A stretch of DNA of 64,000 bases, from contig JBBQUQ010000001.1 of the NCBI GenBank assembly GCA_038212325.1, forward strand, positions 8,339 through 72,338. Reading direction: 5' to 3'. Under the pieces are notes generated by a model. It did not search any database. It saw nothing but the letters and a program-made list of their open reading frames with translations, and was not told where the DNA came from. Shown here piece after piece: positions 1,935 to 26,715 of the stretch. Source of the stretch: Bacteroidales bacterium (GTDB taxonomy: Bacteria; Bacteroidota; Bacteroidia; Bacteroidales; FEN-979). Position 1 is the first letter of the stretch. Each line of letters begins with the position of its first letter. The translations under genes were made by a program, and so were the position numbers.

Positions 1935-1944
1935 GCTTCAGCGG

Positions 1945-4900: not shown

Positions 4901-6369
4901 GCAGCATTGGTGATGGATGGTTTGACAATGTTCAGCGTGTAGTTCTGGCTCAGGCGCGTCAGGCTGTTATTCTGCAGCGGCACGTTTGATGACGGGTAAT
5001 TGGTTGTGACTGCCGGGGTAACGGTATAATCAATGATCGCCCAGTTGACGATCTCCCCCGGTGCATTTCCCACTGGATCGGTTTCCTGCACCTGCAGAAA
5101 ATATTTCGCCGGCTGACCGCTGGTGATCTGGCTGATGAGCGGCGCCAGGTCAAGTCCGAACTCAATGGTTTTGTCGGCTTCCGTCGATCCGCCCTGCATA
5201 TACTGGTCGCCTCCCTGGTTATTGAAAATCGGAAATTCCAGGACATAGGAAGGCACGGTGGCGGCCATGTCGGTGTTCACGCCGGCCGTGACTTTGATCT
5301 TGTTCCTCGATGTATGCTTCAGTGTGACCTTCATGGTTAGCTGCGGGGTGCAGGTGGTTTTCACATCGAGCACATAGATGGTATGGTTCCAAATGCCGCC
5401 ATACCCCATGTTGTCGGCCAGGTTTTTATACATCGTGTAGCAAAAGCCGCTGTTGCACCAGCCTGTTCCGGCATAGCCATTGGCAAATTTCAACCCGCCC
5501 TTTTCCCAGTCGTGCATGTCGACAACGCCGTCGCTGTTGATGTCGATGTTGTTGGTGTACTGGCCATCGCCGTTGAAATCGTAACGGATGGAATCGTTGT
5601 ACCCGCAGATGGTCCAGCCATGCGAAGGACTTCCGCCCCAAAACGTCTGTACATATTTCCCGGCTTCCGGGGTGCCGGCAGGCAACAGTGCGACCGGTGG
5701 TCCGAAGTATTGTGCGTATATGTTGCCGACTCCGCCAACCGGCGATCCTTCAAGATGGTCGAGCAGCCAATATTTCAGCGTTTGCAATCCCTCGGGGGTA
5801 TCCACGCGGATACCCTTCACCGAATTCAACCGGTTGAACATCCCGTTGTAGTAAACATTGTAGCCCGAAATCCATCTTTTATACCCCCCGGTGTTGAGTC
5901 CCCCGCCGTAATCGACCACATTCATGTTTCCGCATGCCTTCACGATTTCCCAGGAGTCGAAAAAGCTGGCCCCGGTGTAGTTGTCGGCATTGTTCAGGAA
6001 ATCCCAGGTAAAATGGGTCGGATACTGGTTCGCGGGCAGGTTGGCAGCGAGCCCGCGCCGGCGGTCAACCTCATAGGTGAAATTGAAGGCAATGCCCGAC
6101 GATTGGCCGCATTCATAGCCCGATTGCGAAGTAATCGGCCTGAAAAACGGATTGGTGGAGTTGTCAACGCTTGTTGGCAGCAGCGGGGCATCAGCGCCCT
6201 GGTACGAGGCGGGCAACTTCAGTTCGGGGATGTTCGACAGCACAAAAAGTTCGTCGGGGGTGAGCGAAACCGGTTCAAGTCCCTTCTGGTAGGGCAGGTT
6301 CTGCGAAAAACTTACAGATCCGTAAAAAAAACTGAATCCAAGAATGAAACAAACGGCGATGTTTTTCAT
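1945..6369 (-). CDS. 1474-aa T9SS-secreted multidomain protein with an N-terminal papain-like (clan CA, C1-like) cysteine peptidase domain
   Basis: Signal peptide MKNIAVCFILGFSFFYGSVSFS. Papain-like residue order: Q82/C87 (SQSGYECGQSSGIAF), H250 (SHGWTICGYND), N297 (ANGYAGTGWCNSGF, compare papain NSWGTGWGENGY). An internal DFETGNF...LLDFIRLP jelly-roll domain is present. The last ~85 aa form a T9SS C-terminal sorting domain (FPNPFSAETQIQYDL...GVYTCRMKAG...KMIVIR). Confidence 0.8.
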   Translation of the reverse strand: MKNIAVCFILGFSFFYGSVSFSQNLPYQKGLEPVSLTPDELFVLSNIPELKLPASYQGADAPLLPTSVDNSTNPFFRPITSQSGYECGQSSGIAFNFTYEVDRRRGLAANLPANQYPTHFTWDFLNNADNYTGASFFDSWEIVKACGNMNVVDYGGGLNTGGYKRWISGYNVYYNGMFNRLNSVKGIRVDTPEGLQTLKYWLLDHLEGSPVGGVGNIYAQYFGPPVALLPAGTPEAGKYVQTFWGGSPSHGWTICGYNDSIRYDFNGDGQYTNNIDINSDGVVDMHDWEKGGLKFANGYAGTGWCNSGFCYTMYKNLADNMGYGGIWNHTIYVLDVKTTCTPQLTMKVTLKHTSRNKIKVTAGVNTDMAATVPSYVLEFPIFNNQGGDQYMQGGSTEADKTIEFGLDLAPLISQITSGQPAKYFLQVQETDPVGNAPGEIVNWAIIDYTVTPAVTTNYPSSNVPLQNNSLTRLSQNYTLNIVKPSITNAALPPAQLYQPYNATLNATSGTPPYLWDVKLEYPEMSLPAAFPAVTAQQLTLTSNNSGFAIKTLGFNFPYYQKSINKVYVYADGYIVFDDQPYTWPYLVDKMLLFKQTGIISPFMTDLTIYPSSSQGVWYEGNANYAIFRWKASLAGMQTSTTLNFAVKLYPNGTIEYYYGDMTYPPGTAWTGGLSSGDNKNYQFSGLHNAPSITSNTLDKFSTCGFPPEMQITEDGHFTGTPTYSYQNLPVKFRVTDNNNISSTKVLLFNTVGLLVNQTVTSGGDSLIEFGETANISLSLNNIGSQAMNNLSFSITETDPYITLLDSLETVASIAGGQTLALANAFAFMVSPDVPDNHSFIVMLHVQSQEQTFQRPIEMLAHAPVFRITRTEFADGDNGRPDPGESADMLLTYKNSGSAKASSINIMLTSLDTNLNFTVNSANISQLKPDSSKTVVFHATAGSSAPMEHIFEIKSDLAANNNFADTDTLYLFSGEIVEDFETGNFNKFPWFGTGQWPWIIETGVKYEGSYSSRSGTVTDNAESILNISARILADGEISFYKYVSCEYDPSGSKNYDYLAFFIDGFEMGRWDGVITWSKETFPVTAGIHRFSWVYHKDYSVAAGWDGCLLDFIRLPLMDGAVPVLSVTPLSFEKTLVTGHDTTEPLYITNLGGGIMNYSVLVFDTTANKKDYGTDNLMGSTVTCSNEGFVPGQAFSWNFSVHNLSGDNEYIKHIKFDFPPGVEVAGATNFSGGSLGELSFQGTPGNGASLNWHGETPGGRGVLKPGETATATLTGTIGEAFMNDIFVVYQLRGDSIGALTHALPGSVKIMNYGLANSWVSLSGSTGSLMNNQTGTVLVNISAAGLVPDTYHCSLVARDSYNNKFVIPVTLHVTFPVDAGDLEPNTATGLRGIFPNPFSAETQIQYDLSSVADVTMEIYSLQGSMLRSWKLDAVKPGSHLQTWDGNDNGGRRVPAGVYTCRMKAGDYAGSLKMIVIR

Positions 6370-6398
6370 GGTGCTGATGTTATTGAGGCATTACAAAT

Positions 6399-7862
6399 TT
6401 AGCGATTCTTTTTATACTGATCGTAAGAATAGATGGCATCCAGCAAAAGCATCGAATCGAGGCTGATCTTCAGCCTGTCAGCCTTTTTTCTGACCTGGTC
6501 CAGCCAATCCGCATTGTTTTTTATATCGAAGGTGAGATGGTACACGGTATCCCAGTAATTTTTACCCTGGTAACTATCGAAATTTGTATAAAAAGAGTAC
6601 CCTGCGTCCCCCCGAATCATTTCCTCGAGGGTTCTGCCCTCAAGTTTTGCCTTATTTACCATGAACCGGAACCATTCGCGGTCGTTCCTCATCTCGTTTT
6701 CAATTCCGTAGATCACCGGATCTTTGATTTCGGGGTGAAAGGCCAGGAACGCCTCATCGGCGAAATTCCAGAAACCGCAGTGAAGGTTTATCTCCGAGAC
6801 CATCAGAAGGACTACATCGAACTTTCCCAGTTTTTCGCGGAGATTGGATTTGTCGACATACTGTGGGGGGTTGTTATTGTGGTAGGGATAGACTTTTTTG
6901 TTGTAATACCAGTAATCCTGCGATTTAAACAGGTGCCGGCCATATTTCTCCACAATGTTGATGTAGTAGCTGTCGGCAATCACCAGGGCCGCCAGGGAAG
7001 CGGTTTTCGAGGTGTCGAATGAAATTGCCGGGTAACCGCCCGCGGTCGGTTTGAGAGGACATGCAAGGTTCAGCAACTCCCCAATGTCGTTGTCGGTGCC
7101 GACCGGCGTTGGAGAGCTGATGATTTTGCCCGTCACAAACCCGGGAACAATCTGACCTGTCGCTGCTTCTATGGTCTTCCGGAGGGTATCCACCGCATAT
7201 GGCACACCGTAAATGCTCCAGTGCATGCCGTATCGCGGAAAAAGAGGATATCGCGACGTATCTTTCATCTGAAGGAACCAACTGTTCAGATCGAGGAAAG
7301 GGATTCCCAGGTCGCGGCAATGCTGCACAAAATAGTCGTAATTCGTTACGGTACGCTTAACCGGGTGAAAACGGGCGGGAATGAATTCAGGATAAAAACT
7401 CGCTTTGCCGGGCTCAAAAACAAGCAGCAGGGGAATATGATGCGCCTTCAGGCTGTCCATCACATTCTGCAGGCGCGACAGTTTCCTGTCGATGACCGAC
7501 TTCCCGATGTAATAATCACCGGTATATTCATGAATGTAATCCTCCTCGTACAAGTACCGGTGCTTTCCCTGGATGAATCCTTCGGCATGGATCATCCGGA
7601 AGAGGCTGTAGTCAAATTGGTTGCTGAGGCGGATGAGCGAATTGCGGAAACCTGCGCCGGCATTGATGCGCCGGGTGAATTCATCCTGGAAACCGGCAGA
7701 AAACCACCTTCGCCAGGTAAACAGCTTCAGCGAAGGAGGTTCAGCCTTTGTGTAGAAGCCCTTCAACCGGGGTTCTTTGATAACGTTAACCGCCAACTGC
7801 AGGGCTGGTGCAGAAAGTATAACAAGGATCAGTACAACAAGTATGATCTTTGACGTTCGCAT
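6399..7862 (-). CDS. AlgX/AlgJ-like (SGNH-like) putative O-acyltransferase partner, membrane-anchored
   Basis: The ORF-track start at 7910 is GTG. The ATG at 7862 gives MRTSKIILVVLILVILSAP, a TM anchor like its paralog. An H-W motif (YGMHWSIYG) precedes an ADSYY motif, the same order as DxHW...GDS in AlgX/AlgJ. It is a paralog of 11390-12688 and sits beside an MBOAT gene. Confidence 0.6.
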   Translation of the reverse strand: MRTSKIILVVLILVILSAPALQLAVNVIKEPRLKGFYTKAEPPSLKLFTWRRWFSAGFQDEFTRRINAGAGFRNSLIRLSNQFDYSLFRMIHAEGFIQGKHRYLYEEDYIHEYTGDYYIGKSVIDRKLSRLQNVMDSLKAHHIPLLLVFEPGKASFYPEFIPARFHPVKRTVTNYDYFVQHCRDLGIPFLDLNSWFLQMKDTSRYPLFPRYGMHWSIYGVPYAVDTLRKTIEAATGQIVPGFVTGKIISSPTPVGTDNDIGELLNLACPLKPTAGGYPAISFDTSKTASLAALVIADSYYINIVEKYGRHLFKSQDYWYYNKKVYPYHNNNPPQYVDKSNLREKLGKFDVVLLMVSEINLHCGFWNFADEAFLAFHPEIKDPVIYGIENEMRNDREWFRFMVNKAKLEGRTLEEMIRGDAGYSFYTNFDSYQGKNYWDTVYHLTFDIKNNADWLDQVRKKADRLKISLDSMLLLDAIYSYDQYKKNR

Positions 7863-7927
7863 AAACCCGGGAAGGTTGTTGAATTCTCTCACAAAGTTAA
7901 AATATTTCACTGCCCGCCTGTTTTCCG

Positions 7928-9868
7928 TTAAAGGTAAAACACCTCCAGGCTGGTATTGATAAAATTTGACACATGAATGCTTTCTATGATCATCGGCGGA
8001 CCTTCGATGGTGAAAATTGTTGCAGGGTCGTTCAATTTCAGGTTATAGACCACAAATTCCACATATTCGCCGGGATCAAATTCGCCATGAATGTGGTTTA
8101 TTTTCAACTTGTTTTTCTCAAGCGGGTTAACCGGCTTTACTTTTAAGGTAACCGTAAAGTACTTGTACTTCGAATAGTACTCAACCAGTATTTTTTCGGA
8201 AACAGAATCGATCCGGGTATCGTTTGCGCCGGGCTGCTTCAACTGAGCGATGGCCAGCAGGGCATCGTCCGATTTATCAGCCTGGTTGTACATGATCCGA
8301 TAGCAGGGTTGCTGCGATTGTTTCGCCTGGCTCAGGAAAGCGCTGTCATTATAAAAAATGAACTGTGAAATGCCGGATTTGGCGGCAACGTAATGACTCC
8401 ATTCAAAGTTCTGTACCGTCAACCCACTGGCCTGGGTCGACGGATTATACCACAAATCTGCTCCGTACATCAGCGATGGCTGCGGAATGATTTTAAATTT
8501 ATCCGACTTCACCATTTCATCCATCGCATATAACCGGGTGCTGGCACGGTCAATGTCGCGGGTCACATAATAATTCGAAAAATCGGTGAGAAAGCTGCAC
8601 AGAACAAATCCGGCGGAAAGCACCAGCGCTGTTGCATGCCGCACGAGGGTGAAGGTTCCGGTAAAATTAAGCAAAAATGCCGTCAGGAGGGTGAGGAAAA
8701 GCACCACCCCGAACAAGGAAAAGAAGGTGGTTACATATCCCAGCATGTTTTGGGTTGTTACGTAAAAAGTGTATTTCACCGTTAATGCCAGGGGGATATG
8801 GGGGAAAAAGGTCATCATTGCTGCGAGTAAAGCCCCGGCCAGCAATGTTCTCCAGGCGATTTTCGGCATCCTGACCAGCAGGTACCAGCTCATGCCGAAA
8901 ACCAGGACGCCCTTGACGATCCATTCGACCCGGGCACGGGCAACGAGGTACGGTACGATGTTATGATAGCCGCCGATCATCTCGGATGTTTTCGCGAACA
9001 GGTCGTGGGTTGCATCATAAACCGTCAATGGGATCGCGGTGTACGATAATTTCCATAAAACAGTGAAAAATGAGTTAAGGATCGTGGCGGTGTCGGCCAT
9101 CTTATTCCCTTCATAACGCGTCGGGTGGGCATGGCTGTAGAGGATATACACGGTTAAATAAGAGATCGCGACTACCAGGAAAGGCAGGATTTGCCAGGCA
9201 ACCTTCTTCACCAACGGCAACCCTCGGTTTCCGCCGGTGAAGCTGTTATAGATGACAGCAAGGAAGACGAACACGATAAACAGGATGTACATCTCAAAAA
9301 ACAGCAAGCCCAGGGCAAACAGCATGGCAGAGCCCGCCAGTGCCCAATAATTTTTCGTTCGCTGAAAACGATGAAGCAGCAGGTACGAGAGCAGGAGGAT
9401 GGAGAACGAAAAAGAAAAGAAAAACGGGTAGTTGACAAACAGGCTGGTATGACGCGAAACCTGCGCCGTTACAAAAAACAACATCACGAAAAAGGCCGAC
9501 AGATCCTTCGATTTTGTAAGGATCAGCACCACACGGTAAAACAGGCAGAGCGATACCAGGATAGGGACGACCTGGAATAGTTTTATCACGAAAATATTAT
9601 CCCAGGCAAAAGGGATGCTTTGAATGGGAAGGGTGATGATGTATTGAAACCGGCCATGCATTTCGGCGAGGAGCACTGCATTTGTAAAAACCTTGTCAAG
9701 CCGTGTCACCAGGTAGCTGGCCATGTCGTCGCCACACGCCAGTCCGGTGTTAAACAACGGGTAAACGGAAATGATCGCAATGGTGATGAAGGCAAGATAA
9801 TAGAAAACGCTGGTGTTCCAGGTTATTTTGTCTTTGAGAAGAAACCGGCCTGCTTTTTTTATATCCAT
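7928..9868 (-). CDS. polytopic membrane protein, GT-C-like (YfhO/ArnT/PMT-style) putative glycosyltransferase with a C-terminal soluble domain
   Basis: The first ~430 aa are highly hydrophobic with many predicted TM helices. The first loop after TM1 carries the acidic motif CGDDMASY. A ~200-aa C-terminal non-membrane domain follows. ATG at 9868 (the track start at 9874 is TTG). Confidence 0.55.
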   Translation of the reverse strand: MDIKKAGRFLLKDKITWNTSVFYYLAFITIAIISVYPLFNTGLACGDDMASYLVTRLDKVFTNAVLLAEMHGRFQYIITLPIQSIPFAWDNIFVIKLFQVVPILVSLCLFYRVVLILTKSKDLSAFFVMLFFVTAQVSRHTSLFVNYPFFFSFSFSILLLSYLLLHRFQRTKNYWALAGSAMLFALGLLFFEMYILFIVFVFLAVIYNSFTGGNRGLPLVKKVAWQILPFLVVAISYLTVYILYSHAHPTRYEGNKMADTATILNSFFTVLWKLSYTAIPLTVYDATHDLFAKTSEMIGGYHNIVPYLVARARVEWIVKGVLVFGMSWYLLVRMPKIAWRTLLAGALLAAMMTFFPHIPLALTVKYTFYVTTQNMLGYVTTFFSLFGVVLFLTLLTAFLLNFTGTFTLVRHATALVLSAGFVLCSFLTDFSNYYVTRDIDRASTRLYAMDEMVKSDKFKIIPQPSLMYGADLWYNPSTQASGLTVQNFEWSHYVAAKSGISQFIFYNDSAFLSQAKQSQQPCYRIMYNQADKSDDALLAIAQLKQPGANDTRIDSVSEKILVEYYSKYKYFTVTLKVKPVNPLEKNKLKINHIHGEFDPGEYVEFVVYNLKLNDPATIFTIEGPPMIIESIHVSNFINTSLEVFYL

Positions 9869-9928
9869 GATCAAATTGGTTTAATTTCAGGTTTTAAAAA
9901 TCGTTGGATTCATTCATTCCATATACGG

Positions 9929-11386
9929 TTAAAACCTGAAATAGATGAACGGACTGAATCCGGAGGAGGTGATGGTTGCCTCGCCAAGGATGAACAGTAA
10001 AATTGCGATCACAGCGCATGCGATCATCAGACCTTTTCCCGGGTTGAAATAGAGCTTCCCGATCCATGATTCCACCTTTTTGAACCCGCCCCAGAACGAG
10101 AATAAGACGGCGATCGCCATCATGGTCCAGAATTTCGGGTTCAGCCAAACATCGCTCTCTCCTCCCTGGAAGGTAAACAGCCGGCGGATGAAAAACCAGG
10201 CTTCATCGATGGTTGCCGACCGGAAAATCAGCCAGCCGATCATCAGCAGGAAAAAGGTGAGTGCAATAGATGGCACTTTGCCTGCTTTTTTCAGGTATTT
10301 GAGCAGGAAGAGCCTGTCGGCGATGATGAAAACCCCCATGTACGCGCCCCAGATGATGAAGGTCCAGGCAGCCCCATGCCAGAAACCACACAGTAGAAAA
10401 GTTATGGTGGTGGCAATGAGGTAGATCACCTTATCGGCACGAAGTCCCAGGTATCGCTCCCTGGGAAGCTTGCGCGAAGTGGCATAGGCCAGCGGGAGAA
10501 AAACATAGTCGCGGAACCACAGAGACAGGGTCATGTGCCACCGGCGCCAGAATTCGGTGATGCTTTGCGAAACATAGGGGGAGTTGAAATTTTCGGGCAG
10601 TCTGAATCCCAGCATCCGTGCAAGCCCGATGGCCATATCGGTGTAGCCGGAGAAGTCAAAATAGATCTGGAAGGTAAAGGCCACGGCTCCGATCCAGGCC
10701 ATGCTGGTTGACAATTCGGCGGAGGAGAGCTGAAATATCTCATTGACTGTAACACCCAGCACGTCAGCGATCAGTACTTTTTTCGACAGCCCGATGATGA
10801 AACGGAAAAAACCGGTCAGCCGGAAGTCGAGCGTCTCCTGCTCCGACCGGTCGGCGATCTGCGATGCGATTTGCCCGGGCCTCACAATCGGCCCGGATAA
10901 CAGTTGTGGAAACATGAAAATATACAGTGCGTAATCCTGCAATTTTTCAAAAACCGGATACTGCTTTTTATACACATCGAAGGTGTAGGCCAGTTTCTGA
11001 AAGGTAATGAAGGAGATCCCTACCGGCAGGGCAATCTTCGTCCATCCGGCAGGTTTTGATCCGAAAACACCGAGGAGCGTGTCAAACTGGTCGACAAAGA
11101 AATTCATATATTTAAAATAGAGGAGCAGCGCCAGGTTCATCAGCACAGAAAGCCAGAACAATATCCTGCGCGCCGAACCGGTTTTCAGGGTCATCCGGCG
11201 GATGATTAAAAAATCAATGACGACCGATCCCGCCACGATAAAAACGAATTTCGGAGCTCCCCAGGCGTAGAAGAGGAGGCTGGCAATAAGGAGAAAGCCG
11301 TTTTTGTAACTGCGGTCGATCAGGAAATAAACAATCAGGATGAACGGAAGGAAGTATAGCAAAAATAAGCTGCTGTTGAATATCAT
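9929..11386 (-). CDS. MBOAT family membrane-bound O-acyltransferase (AlgI/DltB/PatA-like)
   Basis: 485 aa and polytopic. Hallmark motifs are FWRRWHMTLSLWFRDYVFLPL and LLCGFWHGAAW (the MBOAT conserved His). Confidence 0.9.
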   Translation of the reverse strand: MIFNSSLFLLYFLPFILIVYFLIDRSYKNGFLLIASLLFYAWGAPKFVFIVAGSVVIDFLIIRRMTLKTGSARRILFWLSVLMNLALLLYFKYMNFFVDQFDTLLGVFGSKPAGWTKIALPVGISFITFQKLAYTFDVYKKQYPVFEKLQDYALYIFMFPQLLSGPIVRPGQIASQIADRSEQETLDFRLTGFFRFIIGLSKKVLIADVLGVTVNEIFQLSSAELSTSMAWIGAVAFTFQIYFDFSGYTDMAIGLARMLGFRLPENFNSPYVSQSITEFWRRWHMTLSLWFRDYVFLPLAYATSRKLPRERYLGLRADKVIYLIATTITFLLCGFWHGAAWTFIIWGAYMGVFIIADRLFLLKYLKKAGKVPSIALTFFLLMIGWLIFRSATIDEAWFFIRRLFTFQGGESDVWLNPKFWTMMAIAVLFSFWGGFKKVESWIGKLYFNPGKGLMIACAVIAILLFILGEATITSSGFSPFIYFRF

Positions 11387-11389
11387 AGG

Positions 11390-12688
11390 CTACCTGAATT
11401 TTGACAAGCGTTTCAACTCATTATTGTACAAATATATCGCATCGTTCCTTACCATGGCATCCAGCGGAAGATTCTGCTCCTTCGCCTTTTTTTTCATCTC
11501 CTCCATCCATCCCGGGCTCATCCTGAAGTTCTCCTCGATCATCCTGATCCTCGTCTTTCCGGGATAATATTGCTCGTAAGCCCTGTCGACAAATCCATAA
11601 CCGATGTTGCCATAACCGGCATTGGTCTGCATCAGAATCACCACCTCCTGCCGGTCGAGTGCGCTGTCGAGGTTGATCCGGGCAGTATTTGTCGGCCTGG
11701 TATTCTGATCGGGATAAACCTCCTTGTCGTAATACCACATATCCTCCCGCAGGAACGTGTTTTTGATGATCCCGTTAAAATGCCAATACCAGTAATAGCT
11801 GTCGCTGACAAACAGTACGGCGGGTTTCGGGGCATCGCCGGCATAGGTGTGATGAAAAACAGGGTAGGTCATCTGCGGCACCGGGTTCTTCCAAACCAGG
11901 TTCAGCACGCGGTCCATGTCGTCGTCCTCCTTGCGGGCTTCAGGTTCAAGCATCAGGCTGTCGAGCACCATGTGGGGAAGTTCCCGGTTCAGGCTCTTTT
12001 CGAGATACCTGATGAGGGAATCGGCGCCTAAGTAAGCCCCGTAGCAACTCCAGTGCGCCCCGCTGAATGGGTAGAGGTTGTGACGGGAAGTGTCTTTCAG
12101 TTGCACAAGCCATGTGTTAAAATCGATCAGGTTGACCCCCGCATCTTTGAGCTTGCGCGAATAATAATCGTTATTTGTGGGTCCCCGCCCTCCTTCGAGA
12201 AAGCGGTCGGGAATGCTTTCGGGATAGTAAAAGCCTTTCCCAGGTGCCAGGATCACCAGGAGATGTATCTTCTTTTTTGTCCAGAAGTAATCCTGGAGAT
12301 ACTTGATGCGGGAAACCTTGTCGTCGAGAAACCTGGTGCCTGCGAAATCCCTGCCCAGGCATGCATCAATATGGGAATCGATTTGCATGATACCGTTCTT
12401 TCCAACAACAATGCGGGCCGCATGCGGAAGAGAAAACAACGTGTAATCGACCTGGTTGAATATCCTTGTGAATGCATTGTGGAACCCGACTGTCAGGTCG
12501 AGGTGCGGGGTAATTTTAGCCTGGTACTCGCCATTCCTGAGGTCTGCCATGCTGAATTCCGGCCGCTGCCGTTCTTCAAAATAACCTTCAAGCGGCCTGT
12601 CGGGAAAGATGGTAAGCACCTTTTGCACCGTAGGAAAAGCGAGCACCACCATGATCAAAAAAAAGATTGTGCTTTTTATCCACATCAT
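11390..12688 (-). CDS. AlgX/AlgJ-like (SGNH-like) putative O-acyltransferase partner, paralog of 6399-7862
   Basis: Its stop is 3 nt upstream of the MBOAT start. Motifs SGAHWSCYG and FVSDSYY align with YGMHWSIYG and VIADSYY of the paralog. The track start at 12742 is a TTG lying inside a -7 box. ATG at 12688 gives MMWIKSTIFFLIMVVLAF (TM anchor). Confidence 0.6.
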   Translation of the reverse strand: MMWIKSTIFFLIMVVLAFPTVQKVLTIFPDRPLEGYFEERQRPEFSMADLRNGEYQAKITPHLDLTVGFHNAFTRIFNQVDYTLFSLPHAARIVVGKNGIMQIDSHIDACLGRDFAGTRFLDDKVSRIKYLQDYFWTKKKIHLLVILAPGKGFYYPESIPDRFLEGGRGPTNNDYYSRKLKDAGVNLIDFNTWLVQLKDTSRHNLYPFSGAHWSCYGAYLGADSLIRYLEKSLNRELPHMVLDSLMLEPEARKEDDDMDRVLNLVWKNPVPQMTYPVFHHTYAGDAPKPAVLFVSDSYYWYWHFNGIIKNTFLREDMWYYDKEVYPDQNTRPTNTARINLDSALDRQEVVILMQTNAGYGNIGYGFVDRAYEQYYPGKTRIRMIEENFRMSPGWMEEMKKKAKEQNLPLDAMVRNDAIYLYNNELKRLSKFR

Positions 12689-12739
12689 CAGGCAACCATT
12701 AGTCAATCGCAGTAAAAAGGAGGATTTGCAGAACGCCGG

Positions 12740-12747
12740 CAAAGGTA
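12740..12747 (-). promoter_or_regulatory. candidate Bacteroidota -7 box (TACCTTTG on the minus strand)
   Basis: Matches TAnnTTTG. It lies 52 nt upstream of the ATG at 12688, in the 77-nt gap after the GT-C gene. Confidence 0.3.
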
Positions 12748-12765
12748 GTATTTTTCAACAGAATC

Positions 12766-14550
12766 TCAATGCCACCCATAGCGGTAACTCAGTTGCAAAT
12801 CATCCATGTATAAGCTGGCTTGCCTCGGGTTGCGGATGAAAAGGTCGATCTGCAGGCTTGAATCGTTTACATCGGGAATGATGAAGGTTTTTCGCACCTC
12901 AAACCAGGTTCCCTGGCTTCCTTCCACCTTGTCGAGTGGCTGTTCGTCGCCGAAAAGGGTTTTGTTCCCCTTGGCAACGGAGTATCCAAGCGATGCGCCG
13001 GTTGGCTTGCCGCTGTTTTTTAACATCCACACTGCCACTTCGATGGTTTTCGGATATGGATAGCCGAACAGGTCGGTATTGATCGAATAGAGCGGGGTGA
13101 TCCCTCCTTTCTCATTGGCAGCAATGCTGTATTGCCCCGAATGGGTAAAAATGGCCGAAGGCTTCTTTACCGGTGACAGCGCAAGGTTTTCAAAATCATT
13201 TTTATACGAGCCCATCCTGTGCAGCGGTGAAACAACCCCGGAGCGTTCGAACGAGCGCCGGAAGTGGTCCCAATCCCAGGTTGAACCATAATAGCACCGC
13301 TCGAAACGGTAGAGGGCAACGGTATAGCGGATGTTGGAATAAGCCAGTAAAAAAAGAAGGAACAGCATGATGGTTTTCACCAGGAACAGCCGGTGGCCGA
13401 ACACCCAGGTTGCCAGCCACCCGAATGGCACAGCAATGATCGCGTAATACTCGATGAATGAACGCTGGCCATAGCTGCACCCGAAGTACCACATTTTCCA
13501 TGAGGCAAAAACCAGGGTGATCAGCAGGAAAACCGATGCAATTAGCCAGCCGTTTAACCTCCTTTGAAAAATCATCATCGCGATCCCGGCCAGGAAGAAC
13601 AGAACCAGCGGCGTGTAGGTGAGCAGCCCGTTCACCGGGGAAAAAAGCACTTCGGCCACCGCAGGATGGCCCAGGTTGGTGAATCCTTCATTACTATAAG
13701 AAAAATAGAGCCATTTTCCCGACAGGTATTTCCAGTAGATCATCTGCGGAAGAAAAATAAGGAACAGGATTGCAAGGAAGGCCAGGAGACGCGACGGTTT
13801 CAGGAATTGCCTGGTGCGTTTCAGCCATTCGGCAGGGCCGGCAGCATCCCAGGTAAAGAACAGCAGTCCCAGGACGATGCTGGTGGGCCTGACCAGGATG
13901 GCCAATGACAGGATCACGCTGATCAGCAAAAAGTACTTGTATGTTGGCGAAGCATGGTATCGCTTCAAGGCAAACAGAAAAAGAGCGAATAGAAAAAACG
14001 AATAAACATGCGACATCATGCCGTCGATGAGCGAATAGTAAAACAGGTTGGTCCCCAGGAATATCATGGTGACGACAAAAAAGCTGACAGCAGGCCGGAA
14101 ATAGTGGTCGAGGAATCTTTTCAGGAACCAGAGCCCCAGCAACAGGTATACAATGGCGGCAAGGCTCATCATCCGCATGTAGAGCATGGAAAAACCGCTT
14201 TCGCTGTTGAGGCCGGCTATGCGCGAAACCAGTTCGGAGGCGAAAAAGAACGGCGATGCCAGCAAGGCAACGCCATAGGTGTATTTTGTATCGAGCTTGT
14301 TTTTCAGGGTATCTGTGCTGAAACCTCCGCCCGTGCGGATGTCGAGGTCGGCCGGCATCTTATGTGTATCGAACCGGTAAAAAAAGGTGGCAGGAAGATA
14401 AATGTAATACCCTGCCCGGTCGGACCATAGTTCGCTGCGATCGGAAAACCGTGTTGCATCCTTGTGGAAATACCAGGAAAGCGCCAGTGAGACACAAAAC
14501 AGCACATAAAAAAACCACTGCTGCCCCAGACTATTTCGCCATTTTACCAT
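12766..14550 (-). CDS. GT-C fold membrane glycosyltransferase (GT39/GT83-like, PMT/ArnT-style) with a C-terminal beta-sandwich domain
   Basis: 594 aa with about 11-13 TM helices. The loop after TM1 carries WSDRAGYY (acidic residue plus aromatic, as in the loop-1 motif of PMT/ArnT). The C-terminal ~150 aa are soluble (THSGQYSIAAN...LYMDDLQLSY). The start codon lies inside the 8-mer repeat array. Confidence 0.7.
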   Translation of the reverse strand: MVKWRNSLGQQWFFYVLFCVSLALSWYFHKDATRFSDRSELWSDRAGYYIYLPATFFYRFDTHKMPADLDIRTGGGFSTDTLKNKLDTKYTYGVALLASPFFFASELVSRIAGLNSESGFSMLYMRMMSLAAIVYLLLGLWFLKRFLDHYFRPAVSFFVVTMIFLGTNLFYYSLIDGMMSHVYSFFLFALFLFALKRYHASPTYKYFLLISVILSLAILVRPTSIVLGLLFFTWDAAGPAEWLKRTRQFLKPSRLLAFLAILFLIFLPQMIYWKYLSGKWLYFSYSNEGFTNLGHPAVAEVLFSPVNGLLTYTPLVLFFLAGIAMMIFQRRLNGWLIASVFLLITLVFASWKMWYFGCSYGQRSFIEYYAIIAVPFGWLATWVFGHRLFLVKTIMLFLLFLLAYSNIRYTVALYRFERCYYGSTWDWDHFRRSFERSGVVSPLHRMGSYKNDFENLALSPVKKPSAIFTHSGQYSIAANEKGGITPLYSINTDLFGYPYPKTIEVAVWMLKNSGKPTGASLGYSVAKGNKTLFGDEQPLDKVEGSQGTWFEVRKTFIIPDVNDSSLQIDLFIRNPRQASLYMDDLQLSYRYGWH

Positions 14551-14564
14551 TTTACCATTTTATT
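14533..14564. repeat. 8-bp tandem array (4 units: atttcgcc attttacc attttacc attttatt), the complement of the AAATGGYG family
   Basis: Read directly from the sequence. It spans the stop codon of 14560-15138 and the start codon of 12766-14550 (MVKWRNS...). Confidence 0.85.
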
Positions 14565-15138
14565 TGAAGCGTCCCCCCCCTTCATAACGTGTTACCTCCA
14601 CACTGTCAACCAGCATCTCCCCCTTTCCCCGGTACCAGAAATAGGCCTGCAGCACATCCTCGCCATCAGGGGCCTGCGGTACGTGATAATCGTTGCTTAC
14701 CCGGTTCCATTGGTTTGGTTCCAGGTTTTCATGTTCCAGCGCAACAAACATATACTTGAAATTGACTCCCTGGTGGTTGCAGGTAGCCACGAGGCTGCAC
14801 TTTGCCTCCGACACCGGGCATGAGAACCATACCTTTCCGGTAACCCGGATCCACGAAGCGTCGGACGGATTGAGATCCTTGAATTTTATCCATAGTCCGG
14901 GAGAAAACGCAACAGCCGGGCCCATTTTCAGCGGTTCAAGATCATAAAAAGCCAGACGATTTCCTTTATCTTCAAGGTGTGCCGGCAGATGTTCCCGCTC
15001 CGCCAGCGCCAACGGATCAATGATTTGATGCGTATCCCGGTAGTCAAGGTAATGGTTCACACATATGAAAATCCCCACCAGTAAAACTGCAGAAAATCCT
15101 GCAAACAAATTTCCCCGGAACAGACCCTTTTCACTCAT
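14560..15138 (-). CDS. small membrane-anchored protein with a beta-sandwich (CBM-like) domain
   Basis: 192 aa. TM anchor LFAGFSAVLLVGIFICV. The C-terminal part (WIRVTGKVWF...QWNRVSNDY...LQAYFWYRG...LVDSVEVTRY) resembles domains in the 153-1934 and 12766-14550 products. Confidence 0.55.
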   Translation of the reverse strand: MSEKGLFRGNLFAGFSAVLLVGIFICVNHYLDYRDTHQIIDPLALAEREHLPAHLEDKGNRLAFYDLEPLKMGPAVAFSPGLWIKFKDLNPSDASWIRVTGKVWFSCPVSEAKCSLVATCNHQGVNFKYMFVALEHENLEPNQWNRVSNDYHVPQAPDGEDVLQAYFWYRGKGEMLVDSVEVTRYEGGGRFK

Positions 15139-15175
15139 AAAAACACACGTTATGGTAAATTCCTGCCCATCCGGA

Positions 15176-15246
15176 CCTGCATTGTATGCATTGCCTGCAT
15201 TACCTGCATTGCCTGCATTTTTGCATTACCTGCATTGCCTGCATTC
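15176..15246. repeat. 9-bp tandem array, 8 units (cctgcattg consensus)
   Basis: The units read cctgcattg tatgcattg cctgcatta cctgcattg cctgcattt ttgcatta cctgcattg cctgcattc. It is intergenic between 14560-15138 and 15251-15985. Confidence 0.9.
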
Positions 15247-15250
15247 CAAA

Positions 15251-15985
15251 CTATTTAAGGTATCTCCTGTCCCACACATTGTATTTCAGCAAGCACCATA
15301 TCGCCCGGAAAGCATCCTTCATCCCGATTTTTTTTCCCTCCTCATAGGTTCGTCCGTAGTATGAAATGCCAACTTCGTAAATCCTGATTTTAGGAAATCT
15401 GGTGATCTTCGAGGTGACCTCAGGTTCAAACCCAAACCGCCTCTCCCTGAAGTATATCTTTTTCAGGATTTCGGCGCGGAAAAGCTTGTAGCAGGTCTCC
15501 ATGTCGGTGAGATTCAGGTTCGTGAACATGTTGGATACAAACGTAAGGAACTTGTTGCCGATCGAGTGCCAGAAAAAGAGGATCCGGTGCGGCCTTCCCC
15601 CCATGAACCGTGAACCGTACACCACATCGGCAAAGCCGTCGAGGAGCGGTTTCAGCAAAATATTGTATTCGGCAGGATCGTATTCAAGATCGGCATCCTG
15701 GATGATGATAAAATCGCCGGTTGCCTCCTCGATGCCGCGATGCAGGGCAGCTCCTTTGCCCAGGTTCACCGGCTGGTTGAACAGCCTGATGTCGCTGGCC
15801 GGGTGCGCGGCAATATACCGTTCCACCACGCCGATGGTTTCGTCGCGGCTGAAATCATTGACAATGATGATCTCTTTCGTCACCGCTTCCAACAATTCAA
15901 CGGCAAGAACTTTATCGAGAATAAGGTGGATGGTTGCCGCCTCGTTGTAAGCGGGAATTAAGATGCTGAGCTTTCGGGATTCCAT
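15251..15985 (-). CDS. family 2 glycosyltransferase, polyprenyl-phosphate sugar synthase type (Ppm1/DPM1/GtrB/ArnC-like)
   Basis: 244 aa and soluble. Motifs: [26 protein letters not shown] (DxD). Confidence 0.85.
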
Positions 15986-16002
15986 ATAACCGGTTCAAAG
16001 GG

Positions 16003-16010
16003 CAAAAATA
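16003..16010 (-). promoter_or_regulatory. candidate -7 box (TATTTTTG on the minus strand)
   Basis: Matches TAnnTTTG, 18 nt upstream of the ATG at 15985. Confidence 0.35.
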
Positions 16011-16032
16011 AGAGAAAATATCAAGGAATATG

Positions 16033-18570
16033 CTATTCGTAGTAATAGATGCGCTTAACCCTCCGCGAAATGCCCGTTAAAACCTCATACGGTATCGTCC
16101 CGAGTTCCTTCGCCAGGTCAGCAACAGGATGAAGGTCGCCGAAAATGACCACCTCGTCGCCTTCACGTATTTCGGTGAAATCGTGACGGGCGATGGGTGG
16201 CAGGTGACGGGTGATGTCGACCATTGTCAGGTCCATGCATATGTTCCCGATGATCGGGGCCGGTTTGCCGTGCACATAAAGGCACCCCCTGCCGTTTCCC
16301 AGCCTGCGGTTCAGCCCGTCGGCGTAGCCCACAGGCACAATGGCGATCACTGCATCTGTTTCGCTCCTGCCTTTCCGGTTATACCCGACGGTTTCACCTG
16401 CAGGGACATGCTTGATCTGGGTGATCACCGATTTCAGGGTGCTTACATTTCTCAGCATTTGCTGTTCTTCGGGGCTGCTGCCTACCCCGTACAAGCCGAT
16501 CCCAAGCCTTACCATGTCGAACTGCGCCCCGGGAAACCGGCTGATGCCGGCGGAGTTAAGGATATGAAGCAGGACGGGGTAATCCAGGATCCGGGTTATC
16601 CTGGTGCTCATTTCTTTAAAAAGCCTGACCTGCCGGTGTGTGAAGTCATCTTCTTCCGGATCTTCGCTGGCTGCCAGGTGTGAAAACACCGATTGAACCC
16701 TCAGGCCAGGATTCAGCTTCAGTCGTTCAATCAGTGGTTCAAGTTCATCCCGGGTAAATCCCAGGCGGTGCATGCCTGTATCAAGCTTGATATGGACCCG
16801 CACCTCCTGCTGGATGGAGGTCTGGTTGCGTTCAATGGCTTTCTCAAGAAGATGGAGAATGTGCAGGTTGTAAATCTCCGGCTCCAGGTTGTATTTCAAC
16901 AGGGTGTCGAGGCTCTGCTGCTCGGGGCTCATCACCATAATGGGCAGGTGAATCGCGGCCTTTCGCAACTCCACCCCTTCATCGGCATAAGCCACGGCCA
17001 GGTAATCGACACGGTGAAACTGCAGCAGGTTGGCAATTTCAAAGCTGCCGCTGCCGTAGGAAAATGCTTTGACCATCGCCATGGTTTTCGTGCCGGGGTG
17101 CAGTCCTGCCCTGAAATGGTTCAGGTTGTGGATCAGCGCATCCAGGTTGATCTCCATCACCGTTTCATGGGCTTTTTGCTGCAAGGCCTGGCTGATTTTT
17201 TCAAACTCGAACAGGCGCGCACCTTTCAGCAGGATGATCTCATTTTGAAACGAGGAAACAGGGAAATGCTCCAGGAATTCATCGGTGGTCGTAAAAAAAT
17301 CACTTTGCATGGTGAATGTACCGGCGTGTTTCATAAGGTCGCGGCCGATGCCGATGATGCGGCTGATGTTTCGGGATGCCAGCATCGAGGCTACCTCCCG
17401 GTACAATTCAGCCTTGTCGCGCCCTGTTTGAAGAATATCCGACAGGATGACTGTTTTTTTGTGCTGCTGGTTCTGCTGGTTCAGAAAATCGAGGGCGATG
17501 CTGAACGAATTGATGTCGGAATTGTAGCTGTCGTTGATCAGGGAACAGTGATTGATGGCCTCTTTGAGCTCGAGGCGCATGGCGATCGGAGCCAGGGAGG
17601 AATAGCGTGACAGGTGACGCGTGATGCGTGACATGCCTCCAAGGACAATATCGGTGGCGATGCAGTGAATGGAATTTTCTATCGAGGCCTCATCGGTAAA
17701 GGGGATGGTTACTTTAAAAGTTTCCGACCGCGACTCTCCGTGAATATGGGTTTGAGTCATTTCTTTTGTGACCCTGAAAATTTTCAGGTCGGCTTCGTGA
17801 TGCCGGCTCCAGGTGAATGTTTCCAGGTGTTTAAAGGCCGGGTCTGCCTTCAAACACTCTTTAATCAGCGAATAATCAGAACAGTAAACCAGGGTTTTTG
17901 CATTTGTGAACAGTTTCAGCTTTTCATTGACCTTCAGGCGCTGGCTATCAAAATACTCATCATGGGCATGACCGATGTTGGTGAAAATGCCGATCGTGGG
18001 GCTGATGATGGGTGCAATGCGCACCATTTCGCCCGGGCAGGATATGCCTGCTTCAAAGATGGCCAGGTTGTGGCCCGGCGCCATCTTCCACACCGAAAGC
18101 GGAACACCGGTCTGCGAATTATAGCTTTTGGGGCTGCGAATGATCCGGTAGTCGCCGCTCATCAGTTGAAAGAGCCACTCCTTGACAATGGTTTTGCCGT
18201 TGCTGCCGGTGATCCCAATAACGGGAATGGCGAACCGGCTCCGGTGGAATGCGCCAAGGGTTTGCAAGGCTGAGAGGGTGTCGGGGACAAGGATGAACGT
18301 TGCCAGGGGAAAAAGGCGGGCAGGCTGAAGGGCTGACGGGCAGACTGAAACCAGAAATGTTCGTACTCCCTTTTCATAGAGTTCGTCAATATATTTATGC
18401 CCGTCGTTGCGATCGGAAACCAGGGCAACAAAGAGGCAATTTTCGGGGTGGATGAGCCGCCGGCTGTCGATCAGCAGGTCGACGATTACAGGATCATCGC
18501 TGCCTGCGGAATAAACAGTACCGCCGCATATGGAGGCAATTTTCGAGACCGTGATGGCCTGGTCTGTCAT
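16033..18570 (-). CDS. murF/alr: bifunctional UDP-N-acetylmuramoyl-tripeptide--D-alanyl-D-alanine ligase / alanine racemase
   Basis: 845 aa. The N-terminal half is Mur ligase (GITGSNGKT P-loop). The C-terminal half is alanine racemase (AMVKAFSYGSGS PLP-lysine motif, LGIGLYG, CMDLTMVD). This fusion is common in Bacteroidota. Confidence 0.9.
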   Translation of the reverse strand: MTDQAITVSKIASICGGTVYSAGSDDPVIVDLLIDSRRLIHPENCLFVALVSDRNDGHKYIDELYEKGVRTFLVSVCPSALQPARLFPLATFILVPDTLSALQTLGAFHRSRFAIPVIGITGSNGKTIVKEWLFQLMSGDYRIIRSPKSYNSQTGVPLSVWKMAPGHNLAIFEAGISCPGEMVRIAPIISPTIGIFTNIGHAHDEYFDSQRLKVNEKLKLFTNAKTLVYCSDYSLIKECLKADPAFKHLETFTWSRHHEADLKIFRVTKEMTQTHIHGESRSETFKVTIPFTDEASIENSIHCIATDIVLGGMSRITRHLSRYSSLAPIAMRLELKEAINHCSLINDSYNSDINSFSIALDFLNQQNQQHKKTVILSDILQTGRDKAELYREVASMLASRNISRIIGIGRDLMKHAGTFTMQSDFFTTTDEFLEHFPVSSFQNEIILLKGARLFEFEKISQALQQKAHETVMEINLDALIHNLNHFRAGLHPGTKTMAMVKAFSYGSGSFEIANLLQFHRVDYLAVAYADEGVELRKAAIHLPIMVMSPEQQSLDTLLKYNLEPEIYNLHILHLLEKAIERNQTSIQQEVRVHIKLDTGMHRLGFTRDELEPLIERLKLNPGLRVQSVFSHLAASEDPEEDDFTHRQVRLFKEMSTRITRILDYPVLLHILNSAGISRFPGAQFDMVRLGIGLYGVGSSPEEQQMLRNVSTLKSVITQIKHVPAGETVGYNRKGRSETDAVIAIVPVGYADGLNRRLGNGRGCLYVHGKPAPIIGNICMDLTMVDITRHLPPIARHDFTEIREGDEVVIFGDLHPVADLAKELGTIPYEVLTGISRRVKRIYYYE
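16183..16217. repeat. degenerate 7-bp tandem array (gtgacgg gcgatgg gtggcag gtgacgg gtgatgt) inside the alr coding region
   Basis: Read directly. It translates on the minus strand to DITRHLPPIARHDF. Confidence 0.6.
17605..17632. repeat. 7-bp tandem array (gcgtgac aggtgac gcgtgat gcgtgac) inside the murF coding region
   Basis: Read directly. It translates on the minus strand to MSRITRHLSRY. Confidence 0.8.
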
Positions 18571-22566: not shown

Positions 22567-25500
22567 ATGAAAAAAAATTACTTATTATCTCTTCCCATAA
22601 TTGCGGTTTTATTGCTGGGACAATTGTTATTTTTCCAGCATACAGCCTATTCCCAAGCCACTGAACCAGTTTCTATCGGGACTGAGAGCCATGTGGTAAA
22701 TTTTGATAACGCCCTGCATCAAAAACCAGTGCAGCATCACTTAACCAGAGCCCTCACTCCGCAGGAAATGCATGTTCTGGGCGAGTTAACCCCTGCAGAA
22801 AGAACCTTGATCGAGGGATACGTTGAACCACTCGCTGTAGGTGTTGTGCGTGATCTGAAAGAACCCATCCGGTTTTCCCTGAGCGAAATTAACATACCAG
22901 CCCAGGGCGAAGTATCGGTTTCCGGTGGCAGACTTGCAAGGATCAACGAAGATACCATCGTCTGGACGACCTGTATCAAGTCGGCAAAGGCAGATGAACT
23001 CCGGATCTTTTTCTCAGAAGGCAATTTTCCGGATGGCGTAAAAGTAAATTTCTTCAGCAAAGATGGCTATGCATTTAACCAGTTTGACCTGAGGGGAATG
23101 CTGAAAGAGGATGGTTTTTACACTACCACAACCTTTGCCGATTATGTTTTTATGGAAGTAGTGATCCCGGTCAGGTTGATCACGGAGAATTTGTATTTTG
23201 TCGTACCAAAGGTGGTCCACTCCGACAGCCGATACATGCCTGACGCTCCTCTTGACTGCTATCAGGATGTAAATTGTTCTTATGCAAATGGTTATGGCGA
23301 TATTGGTTCCTTGAAAGCGAGTACAGCCAAACTATCGTTCGTCGTTAGCGGCGTAAACTATATTTGTTCGGGCGGCCTGCTGAATGATGCAAGAGGTATT
23401 GATTGGCAGCCATTTTTATTAACAGCCAACCATTGTTTCAGCTCACAGGCTTCGGCAACCTCGCTCGAAGCCCGTTTCGACCTTTTCTCCACCTCATGCA
23501 ATGGGGGAACCAACCCAAATGTAGTCCTGGTCAACGGGTCGAGCCTTATTGCAACCAATAGTGGAAGTGATTTTACAATGGTGCTTCTTAACCAATTTCC
23601 TTCAGGATACAGAGCCTTTTTGGGATGGACAACGGGTGCCGTGGCAGACAATGAAACGATGCATTCGGTAAACCATCCTGCCGGGATGCCACAGAAATAT
23701 GTACGGGTGGCGAACGATTACTCTCCGGCATACAACTGCACAGGTTTCAGCACCTCAAATTTTCACTATACCAATGTGCTCGGCGGTCAAACCACCGGAG
23801 GCAGCTCAGGCGGGCTGATCGTCAATTCCGGTGGAGGGGTGGTCGGTCAGTTATACGGCACTTGCCATGGGACAACCTGGGGCGAATGTAATTATGGATC
23901 CTTTAATAACATGTGGGGCCGGTTCAATGTATCGTATAACAACAACAACTTACAATACTGGCTGAATGGTGGCGGGTCAAGCGTTTACATGTCAACCTCC
24001 ACTTCATCGCTCTCCTACGCGACACTCAACGTGGGTTCTTACCAGGATTTGACCGTAACCGTTTATAATGACGGATATATTCCATACTATTTGAACCTCG
24101 AAGCAGGAAATGCATACATTTCCGGTGCCGATGCGAGCCAGTTTTCCATCATAGGCACTTCGTACCTTTATCTGTCGCCGAGCACATCGGGCACTTTCAC
24201 CGTGCGCTTTGCACCAACCTCTTCCGGTGCAAAATCGGCGTCATTGAATATACCCCACAACGCAAATAACATTGTCAGCCCGAAAGTGATCTCACTTTCC
24301 GGCGCCGCAGAACCATGTTCAAATATCATTTCACTCGGAACCGGCGGGACGGCCAATGCAAAGACTTATTCTAAAAGCGGATCAGGCATATGGTATACAA
24401 CTTTTTCACCGTGCGGCAGTTGGTCTTGTCCGGGCAATGAGCAAATTTACAGTTTTACAGCTCCGTACACGGGTTACTACAGCATTGCAGTCTCTGCATC
24501 AAATTCGCACTGGATCGACTATATGTGGAAAACAAGCTGCGACGGAGGTGTATGGACCTGCATAGATGATGCTTATTATCCAGGCACCTATGGTTCCATT
24601 TACTGGACTGCCGGCAGCACCTATTATATCCTGGCGGATGCTGAATCGACCGCTCTTACCACGCAAACGTTCTACGTCTTCCTGAACCCTTGCCTGAACA
24701 CTGTTTCCATCGGCGGAACCGGACCTGATTACAGCCAGACCTATAACGGGGGCGGAACCGGGGGATGGAATTCAAATATTGCAGGCCCCTGCAGTTGGCT
24801 CTGTCCCGGAGTTGAGAGTGTGTACAGTTTTGTAGCACCTTATACCGGATATTATAGTCTGAATGTTTCCAGCACGACAGAATACTATGTTGACTACGCA
24901 TGGAGTACCTCGTGTGGATCAACCGGATGGAACTGTATCCAGGATGTTTTGAGCCCCGGCAATTACGGCAACATGTTCTGGACGGCCGGTACAACCTACT
25001 ACATCCTGCTTGATGATGAAAATGGAGTTGTAGGGCCGCAAACATTTTATATAAACGAACCAAACCCCTGTCAGGGCATCATCTCCCTGGCATGCAACCA
25101 GTCGGTTGCATTTGCAGGGGGCGGACCGGGTGTGTGGGGTTACAACCCATGTTATTCCTCGCCCGGCTTTGAACAAATCTACAGCTTCGTAGCACCCACA
25201 ACGGGCCAGTACAGCATCGAGGTCAATGCCGCAGGAAGTTGGGTTGATTACCTATGGAAAGCAGGATCCTGCTCTGCCGGCGACTGGAATTGCATATCTT
25301 ACGTTCAAAGCCCCGGACAATATGGCTCCATGGAATGGACTGCCGGCACCACCTATTATATCATGCTGGATGATGAAGACACATATGCCGGAATACATAG
25401 TTTCAAGATCATTTGTCCTGAGCTGTGCCATACTTGCCCGGTTTATGATTATCAGATATCTCCCAATGAAACCTGGCAGCTTTCCTCCTCATCCATTGAC

Positions 25501-26568: not shown

Positions 26569-26607
26569 AGCAAGTTCCCGGTATCGGGTTAAATATTTTA
26601 CCGGCAG

Positions 26608-26648: not shown

Positions 26649-26715
26649 GAACCCCTGATCATGGCTTAACTTTTAAGCCAAAATATCTGTTTCTTAACCT
26701 GTAAAACCTTCAGCT

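Follow-up and report, generated by a model that had tools for sequence, protein, structure and literature searches.

GT-C glycosyltransferases that decorate envelope glycans are hard to annotate and recognize their acceptors in poorly understood ways, and studies of the carbohydrate-binding modules (CBMs) fused to such enzymes are limited to a few cases (EmbC, AftD and the GT136 enzyme ORF12). In the closest described systems, Citrobacter youngae ORF12 and the mycobacterial EmbA/B/C and AftD proteins, a polytopic GT-C enzyme carries a C-terminal, periplasmic, beta-rich CBM that binds the acceptor (PMC11127046, PMC3044687). The C-terminal CBM of ORF12, which belongs to a three-component pentofuranose system, binds the acceptor O-polysaccharide (PMC11127046), and the CBMs of EmbC and AftD bind arabinan (PMC11127046, PMC3044687). 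Here, we analyzed a 64,000-nucleotide stretch of DNA (the window) from an uncultured Bacteroidales bacterium, in which minus-strand genes run all along positions 153-18570, and found that one CBM22-like domain recurs in three proteins of this gene cluster: at the C-terminus of a polytopic GT-C-like protein, as the ectodomain of a small anchored protein encoded next to it, and near the N-terminus of an FG-GAP-like protein. The corresponding features are the following (aa, amino acids; TM, transmembrane; HMM, hidden Markov model):

12766-14550, minus strand: polytopic GT-C-like protein (PMT_2/ArnT-type), 594 aa
12769-13224, minus strand: C-terminal CBM22-like domain of the GT-C-like protein, residues ~443-594 (domain profile matches, AlphaFold, Foldseek)
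14560-15138, minus strand: anchored CBM-like protein, 192 aa (77 homologs, none of them annotated)
14575-14967, minus strand: CBM22-like domain of the 192-aa protein, residues ~58-188 (family alignment A1, AlphaFold, Foldseek)
15028-15129, minus strand: TM signal-anchor helix at the N-terminus of the 192-aa protein, residues 4-37 (AlphaFold helix; single hydrophobic segment)
153-1934, minus strand: FG-GAP-like protein, 593 aa, with a signal anchor, a CBM22-like domain and an FG-GAP-like repeat region of about 380 aa
1305-1772, minus strand: CBM22-like domain of the FG-GAP-like protein, residues ~55-210, which follow directly on the N-terminal signal anchor (HMM, hhalign)

The presence of one domain in all three proteins had been proposed in an earlier note on this DNA, and its coordinates were found to be correct: the C-terminal 150 aa of the 594-aa open reading frame (ORF) are encoded by 12769-13218, the ectodomain of the 192-aa ORF by 14569-14961 and residues 55-205 of the 593-aa ORF by 1320-1772, all on the minus strand. 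The sequence motifs quoted there were all present as well, although the first two strings had been attributed to their regions in swapped order: the FG-GAP-like protein contains YYDFE...AHSGQYSVKAFGQ, and NDFENL...THSGQYSIAANEK is found in the GT-C-like protein. To compare the segments, we gathered 77 homologs for the 192-aa protein, nine for the GT-C C-terminus and five for the FG-GAP N-terminus, which gave family alignments A1, A2 and A3, respectively, and the merged alignments A4 and A5. With BLASTP, the FG-GAP N-terminus matched both the GT-C C-terminus and the 192-aa protein (E 3e-5 in each case), and no significant match was obtained between the GT-C C-terminus and the 192-aa protein. 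When the three family HMMs were run against the 533 six-frame ORFs of the window, the FG-GAP-like protein was found by the 192-aa family at 1.3e-12 and by the GT-C C-terminal family at 2.4e-5, and the FG-GAP family found the 192-aa protein at 1.3e-4; the next best matches of the three HMMs all lay above 0.07.

Profile-profile comparison, which the earlier note had suggested as a check, was carried out with hhalign and gave two strong pairs and one weak pair: A1-A3 (96.8%, E 2.9e-10, 199 columns with the TM anchor included), A2-A3 (77.7%, E 1.9e-5, 152 columns) and A1-A2 (19%, E 1.2e-3). The real FG-GAP segment scored 44.4 and 22.3 bits, whereas none of its 2,000 shuffled versions exceeded 9.8 and 7.1 bits, respectively. 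In addition, 35 ORFs in related loci were matched by all three family HMMs, such as L025:5968-7941 with E-values of 3e-15, 1.3e-6 and 1e-4, and the weak pair of GT-C C-terminus and 192-aa protein is therefore closed transitively. A merged MAFFT alignment of the three families was co-linear with hardly any gaps; one Trp was invariant across it, and D-F-E, Ser, Pro and D-D were near-invariant. Within each family (A1-A3) identity was 50-80% and invariant aromatic residues were present. Thus, the three regions share one co-linear domain of about 150 aa by homology, as the earlier note had claimed.

The description of this domain as a CBM-like beta-sandwich was also supported. When AlphaFold2 was run on the merged alignment to model the GT-C C-terminus, it predicted a sandwich of 8-9 strands (pLDDT 84.7), and the 192-aa protein was modeled as a TM helix (residues 4-37), a linker and then the sandwich (pLDDT 87.1). 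Foldseek searches of the PDB with the two models returned overlapping lists (E 1e-5 to 1e-3), in which both models matched receptor-binding domain 1 (RBD1) of CDTb and iota-Ib (9MUI, 9JSK), CBM16 (2ZEY/2ZEX), CBM22 (4XUN, 1H6X) and BC2L-C (2WQ4), and Vip4 (7MJR) was also listed; for the CBM16 and CBM22 entries the E-values ranged from 6e-5 to 1e-3. At the sequence level, the merged profile matched both CBM22 modules of 4XUP with E-values of 2.6e-11 (full alignment) and 2.7e-10 (domain-only alignment), and 4XUN with 5e-6 and 1.5e-4, respectively. This remote CBM22 link (E ~1e-10) was recovered solely by pooling the three diverged paralog families into one profile. Scans of Pfam and NCBIfam found no family for the domain in the three window proteins, nor in 42 family members and ten distant representatives. 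Taken together, these matches and the lack of any Pfam or NCBIfam detection point to a domain that, judged by sequence and predicted structure, is a divergent and uncatalogued branch of the CBM4/9/16/22 superfamily, with CBM22 as its nearest relative by sequence.

The assignment of the 594-aa protein as a GT-C enzyme was borne out indirectly. By itself this protein had no match in Pfam, NCBIfam or the PDB, and its similarity to the other polytopic protein of the window was not significant. However, the profile of its orthologs aligned over 543 columns (hhalign E 1.1e-47) with a paralog in a related locus (L006:12932-14791) that passes the Pfam PMT_2 model at 38.5 bits (cut-off 26.1) and whose own C-terminal domain resembles the 192-aa family. 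A crude hydropathy count on the ortholog alignment indicated about 11 TM segments, within the 7-13 expected of a GT-C fold, and the motif E40-x-W-S-D44-R-A-G-Y-Y-I-Y-L-P, which is invariant in six orthologs, lies directly after TM1; its E40 and D44 agree with the conserved acidic residues that GT-C enzymes have in the first extracytoplasmic loop. With 11 TM segments, loop 1 and the C-terminal domain would both be outside.

The remaining genes of the cluster are as follows:

16033-18570, minus strand: MurF-type Mur ligase fused to an alanine racemase (MurF-Alr), 845 aa
15251-15985, minus strand: family 2 glycosyltransferase (GT2), 244 aa (Pfam Glycos_transf_2 at 1.4e-30)
11390-12742, minus strand: AlgX-like SGNH protein, 450 aa (Pfam ALGX at 5.6e-9)
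9929-11386, minus strand: AlgI/DltB-like membrane O-acyltransferase (MBOAT), 485 aa (Pfam MBOAT at 2.4e-21)
7928-9874, minus strand: polytopic protein, 648 aa
6399-7910, minus strand: second AlgX-like SGNH protein, 503 aa (Pfam ALGX at 6.2e-12)
1945-6369, minus strand: type IX secretion system (T9SS) cargo protein, 1474 aa (Por_Secre_tail)

In the direction of transcription, the gene for MurF-Alr comes first, followed by those for GT2, the 192-aa protein and the GT-C-like protein, and the FG-GAP-like gene is the last of the cluster. The GT2 resembles the polyprenyl-phosphate sugar synthases AglJ, PpgS and ArnC and Dol-P-hexose transferases, with all NCBIfam scores below the cut-offs; from its sequence, it is the probable maker of a lipid-linked donor. 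The product of the gene between GT2 and the GT-C-like gene spans the membrane once and has a beta-sandwich ectodomain, and is not a GtrA-like multi-helix flippase. The MBOAT protein reached 171 bits with the NCBIfam DltB model, which is under the cut-off of that model. Several related loci, but not every one, keep the MurF-Alr gene upstream of GT2, and the fusion is therefore probably just a housekeeping neighbor.

A gene of the 192-aa type was located directly upstream of a GT-C-like gene encoding 573-604 aa in all eight loci examined. The pairing was also seen in loci lacking the GT2 or the acylation genes, and two small gene/GT-C-like pairs stand in tandem on a single contig. The 192-aa protein of the window has a 20-residue in-frame deletion between residues 68 and 69, found in this protein only (one of 42 aligned homologs), which removes the conserved strand 'GNA-x-DTASHLA-x-x-GH-x-GKQS', the counterpart of the HSGQYS motif of the other two proteins. 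An identical deletion-bearing protein is on record from both NCBI and an independent Logan assembly, and AlphaFold still gave a confident sandwich despite the deletion. As a side observation, a PIN/DUF6364 toxin-antitoxin pair (L002:12728-13380) is present between the GT-C-like and AlgX-like genes of a related genome.

The name FG-GAP protein, used in the earlier note, was weakly supported: the matches of the window protein itself were below threshold (FG-GAP_3, 17.0 bits with a cut-off of 26.9; FG-GAP, 15.1 bits with a cut-off of 22.1); 12 of 17 family members matched FG-GAP_3 weakly (best E 7.5e-5). A PDB profile search with the whole family returned nothing informative. Scanning species-representative genomes with the FG-GAP-like protein identified 28 loci, all from metagenome-assembled genomes of Bacteroidales/Bacteroidota, and 26 of them, which contain a full-length ortholog, were used for neighborhood counts. 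The domain profile matched every one of these 26 orthologs. A T9SS cargo gene was found directly upstream of the FG-GAP-like gene in 19 loci, an AlgX-like gene within 10 kb (at most) of it in 22, and at least one further domain-bearing polytopic gene within 10 kb in 18, with some clusters holding four or five copies. Thus, the gene neighborhood is conserved.

Beyond these loci, an exhaustive HMMER search of 1.84 billion representatives detected the domain in 2,637 clusters (50% identity) at E <= 1e-3 and in 932 at E <= 1e-10. In a rough count over the best 150 of the 2,637 clusters, about half were proteins of 590-780 aa with a signal anchor, one or two copies of the domain and an FG-GAP-like C-terminal region, about one fifth were polytopic proteins with one to three C-terminal copies, and about another fifth were small anchored proteins or fragments. 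Ten distant members were sampled; their sequences agreed with these three architectures, and none of them had a Pfam match. In related clusters, the number of genes with the domain reaches five or six, and at least three different polytopic scaffolds carry it. Loci with multiple domain-bearing genes are:

L002:16580-18463 and L002:18460-20436, minus strand
L006:6672-9958
the upstream regions of L025 and L027-L028

One of these scaffolds, a family of 650-700 aa with a 'GGADN-x-x-HY' motif, is encoded on the opposite strand and is missing from the window. We also considered a small CBM protein beside a domain-less GT-C in L027 as support for action of the domain in trans, and rejected it. It proved to be a frameshifted paralog next to a truncated gene adjacent to an insertion sequence (IS): L027:2320-5761 (minus strand) is a frameshifted duplicate of a 654-aa domain-bearing polytopic gene, L027:1161-2159 (minus strand) is a GT-C-like gene without the domain, and both adjoin an IS630-like transposase ORF. 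This stretch is a case of ongoing duplication and decay in these clusters.

What might be the function of this domain? Each copy follows a TM helix via a short linker, which would place the module just outside the inner membrane, the periplasmic side of the GT-C copy being deduced from the topology described above. By analogy with ORF12, EmbC and AftD, and considering both sequences and models, we think that the domain is probably a membrane-proximal module that binds the acceptor glycan and serves a periplasmic glycan-modification pathway. In such a pathway, the GT2 would load a sugar onto polyprenyl phosphate, the lipid-linked sugar would be flipped across the membrane, and the GT-C enzyme would transfer it to a glycan of the envelope on the periplasmic side. 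By binding this acceptor glycan at the membrane surface, the jelly-roll module would raise its local concentration for the GT-C enzyme, with the stand-alone 192-aa protein acting as a non-catalytic partner of the latter. The same polymer would also be a target of the FG-GAP-like protein and possibly of the acylation pair (MBOAT/AlgX-like). What we infer here is glycan binding, the identity of the glycan and a physical partnership between these proteins. The conserved synteny and the precedent of GT-C enzymes with CBMs make the earlier suggestion of one substrate for all three proteins reasonable; on the other hand, since the copies are just 13-17% identical to each other, one shared substrate is put forward as a plausible hypothesis.

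Several observations weigh against this glycan-binding reading. The Foldseek matches had modest TM-scores (0.4-0.55) and also included generic jelly rolls, for example MAM domains, viral capsids and TNF-like lectins, especially with the model of the 192-aa protein. When the single-family profiles A1-A3 were compared with PDB sequences, CBM22 was not reached and nothing significant was found; similarly, none of the 42 members passed the threshold of a Pfam CBM model, the best being PF02018 (CBM_4_9) with an E-value of 0.15 in one member. The positions conserved across families (DFE, W and DD) are of the kind that holds a fold together and not of the kind that lines a cleft, and mutual identity of the copies is as low as mentioned above. 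The topology of the GT-C C-terminus was derived from a crude hydropathy count. No flippase was identified in the cluster, the rest of the window having been covered by no systematic flippase search. Finally, the 192-aa protein of the window may be impaired because one strand has been lost.

One alternative is that the module serves protein-protein interaction or assembly, either by joining the membrane proteins of the cluster into one complex via their similar domains or by recognizing a protein acceptor, such as the T9SS cargo. The strict pairing of the small protein and the GT-C would fit such a role, as would the fact that PMT_2-type enzymes include protein mannosyltransferases involved in protein O-glycosylation, the presence of a T9SS cargo gene immediately before the FG-GAP-like gene (19 of 26 loci), the non-lectin jelly rolls among the Foldseek matches and the structural appearance of the residues conserved across families. 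However, among solved structures only a true xylan-binding CBM22 was matched significantly by sequence, the nearest structural matches are mostly CBMs and lectins, and all characterized C-terminal beta-domains on such bacterial GT-Cs bind glycan (PMC11127046, PMC3044687). We consider a protein-binding role unlikely.

Another explanation accepts glycan binding and proposes that the copies are old paralogs of one module that now bind different ligands, such as different epitopes or maturation stages of a polymer; a shared domain would then give no information on a common substrate. Judged by sequence, the three copies could have diverged in specificity: identity is 13-17% between families compared with 50-80% within them, the domain is found in as many as five or six genes of a related cluster and on at least three membrane scaffolds that are unrelated, and some proteins have two or three tandem copies. 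The tight three-gene synteny in at least 26 genomes argues instead for one pathway, although not necessarily for one ligand, and on balance we regard different ligands as quite unlikely. It is very improbable that the resemblance is due to chance or to a composition rich in beta-strands, with three unrelated sandwiches, since only the non-significant direct comparison of the GT-C and 192-aa segments speaks for it, whereas HMM E-values down to 1e-12 among 533 ORFs, shuffled scores of at most 9.8 bits compared with the real 44.4, 35 bridging ORFs, a co-linear alignment with very few gaps and the same fold matches for both models speak against it.

A fourth copy of the domain had also been suggested, as well as a further one in the T9SS cargo, and neither could be upheld. 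The C-terminus of the 648-aa product of 7928-9874 was rejected as a copy (hhalign probability below 1%, no HMM match), and so was the DFETGNF...LLDFIRLP domain of the T9SS cargo (hhalign 0.4%, no HMM match). In the related genome L002, the gene after that for MBOAT does bear the domain at its C-terminus (E 8e-10). The 648-aa protein is 19% identical to this 630-aa positional counterpart and 51% identical to a 646-aa protein of L006, and both the 648-aa protein and its L006 ortholog stop before the second half of the domain, which the L002 counterpart carries. By sequence comparison, the 648-aa protein thus belongs to a different family from the domain-bearing counterpart. It matched an LA_3751/LA_3752 putative glycosyltransferase weakly, and its L006 ortholog had a weak Pfam GtrII match (E 2e-4); possibly, the 648-aa protein is a further GT-C-like enzyme whose C-terminal domain differs or has degenerated. 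In the T9SS cargo, papain-like Cys/His motifs (GYECGQSSG ... HGWTICGYND) were visible by eye at the N-terminus, and no Pfam model covered either this papain-like region or the DFE-type jelly roll.

The remainder of the window is rich in T9SS-related genes (22567-30636, 45194-47680, 49989-52304 and 54630-56666). Genes in this part encode two cargo proteins, both about 1,300 aa long, in which PKD_6 domains and one Laminin_G_3 domain are present, as well as a PorZ homolog, a PAD_porph protein with a CBM56, and a polysaccharide co-polymerase of the Wzz/GNVR tyrosine-kinase type. Between 30000 and 36000, the G+C content is 0.42-0.44, compared with about 0.50 elsewhere in the window; this stretch encodes T9SS cargo with an ice-binding-like domain (32118-33980) and Fib_succ_major (30679-31869), and may have been horizontally acquired.

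With regard to glycan binding by a membrane-proximal module, the combination of a GT-C enzyme and a CBM is a known theme, and current views are not overturned by our results. What stands out is the size of the family, its invisibility in databases and the strict pairing of the small protein with the GT-C. To the few fused CBMs studied so far, this analysis adds a widespread, database-invisible CBM22-like family that marks GT-C enzymes and their partners in Bacteroidales, and the domain provides a simple sequence handle for locating whole clusters. In addition, the same module occurs fused to an enzyme, free-standing and on a non-enzymatic protein, which offers a natural test of cis versus trans action for CBMs of membrane glycosyltransferases. 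One may speculate further, as a tentative possibility, that this unnamed family (~2,600 clusters at 50% identity) is the common mark of a machine of several proteins that modifies periplasmic glycans in Bacteroidales, in which the stand-alone copy would be an obligate non-catalytic lectin subunit supplying a 'two-piece' GT-C with its acceptor and the FG-GAP-like protein would hand the polymer on by means of the same module.

Compared with characterized domains, the window domain shares with CBM22, as represented by the CBM22-1/CBM22-2 tandem of Paenibacillus barcinonensis Xyn10C (4XUP, 4XUN), a beta-jelly-roll of about 150 residues, the opening 'DFE-G', the 'GH-x-x-x-SL' and 'G-x-W-x-K/R-V' strands and a closing acidic strand; further references of this superfamily (CBM22, CBM16 and CBM4/9) are the CBM22 of C. 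thermocellum Xyn10B (1H6X) and the CBM16 of ManA (2ZEX/2ZEY). However, CBM22 modules are found on secreted glycoside hydrolases, whereas the window domain is attached to TM helices on inner-membrane biosynthetic proteins. RBD1 of CDTb and iota Ib (9MUI, 9JSK), a CBM-like, Ca-binding jelly roll, gave the best Foldseek E-values with both models, but its context of toxin receptor binding is different and no sequence similarity to the window domain was detected.

At the level of gene clusters, Gtr-type systems (a GtrB-like GT2, the flippase GtrA and the GT-C enzyme GtrC) show the same order of GT2, small membrane protein and GT-C as the window, and their GT2 and that of the window, the latter by sequence, both appear to be of the polyprenyl-phosphate sugar synthase type. 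The middle gene differs, since it encodes the four-helix flippase GtrA in Gtr-type systems and a single-pass protein with a CBM-like ectodomain in the window, and the window cluster, unlike Gtr-type systems, also bears MBOAT/AlgX-like acylation genes. ORF12 has about 11 TM segments, as estimated also for the GT-C-like protein of the window, and in the ORF12, Emb and AftD systems the polyprenyl-phosphate sugar donor is made by a separate enzyme (PMC11127046, PMC3044687), whose counterpart in the window would be the GT2. In the window, the membrane domain resembles PMT_2, and no similarity between it and solved GT-C chains could be detected. The presence of the module on a separate anchored protein encoded next to the GT-C-like gene, as well as on an FG-GAP-like protein, has not been described for Emb, AftD or ORF12.

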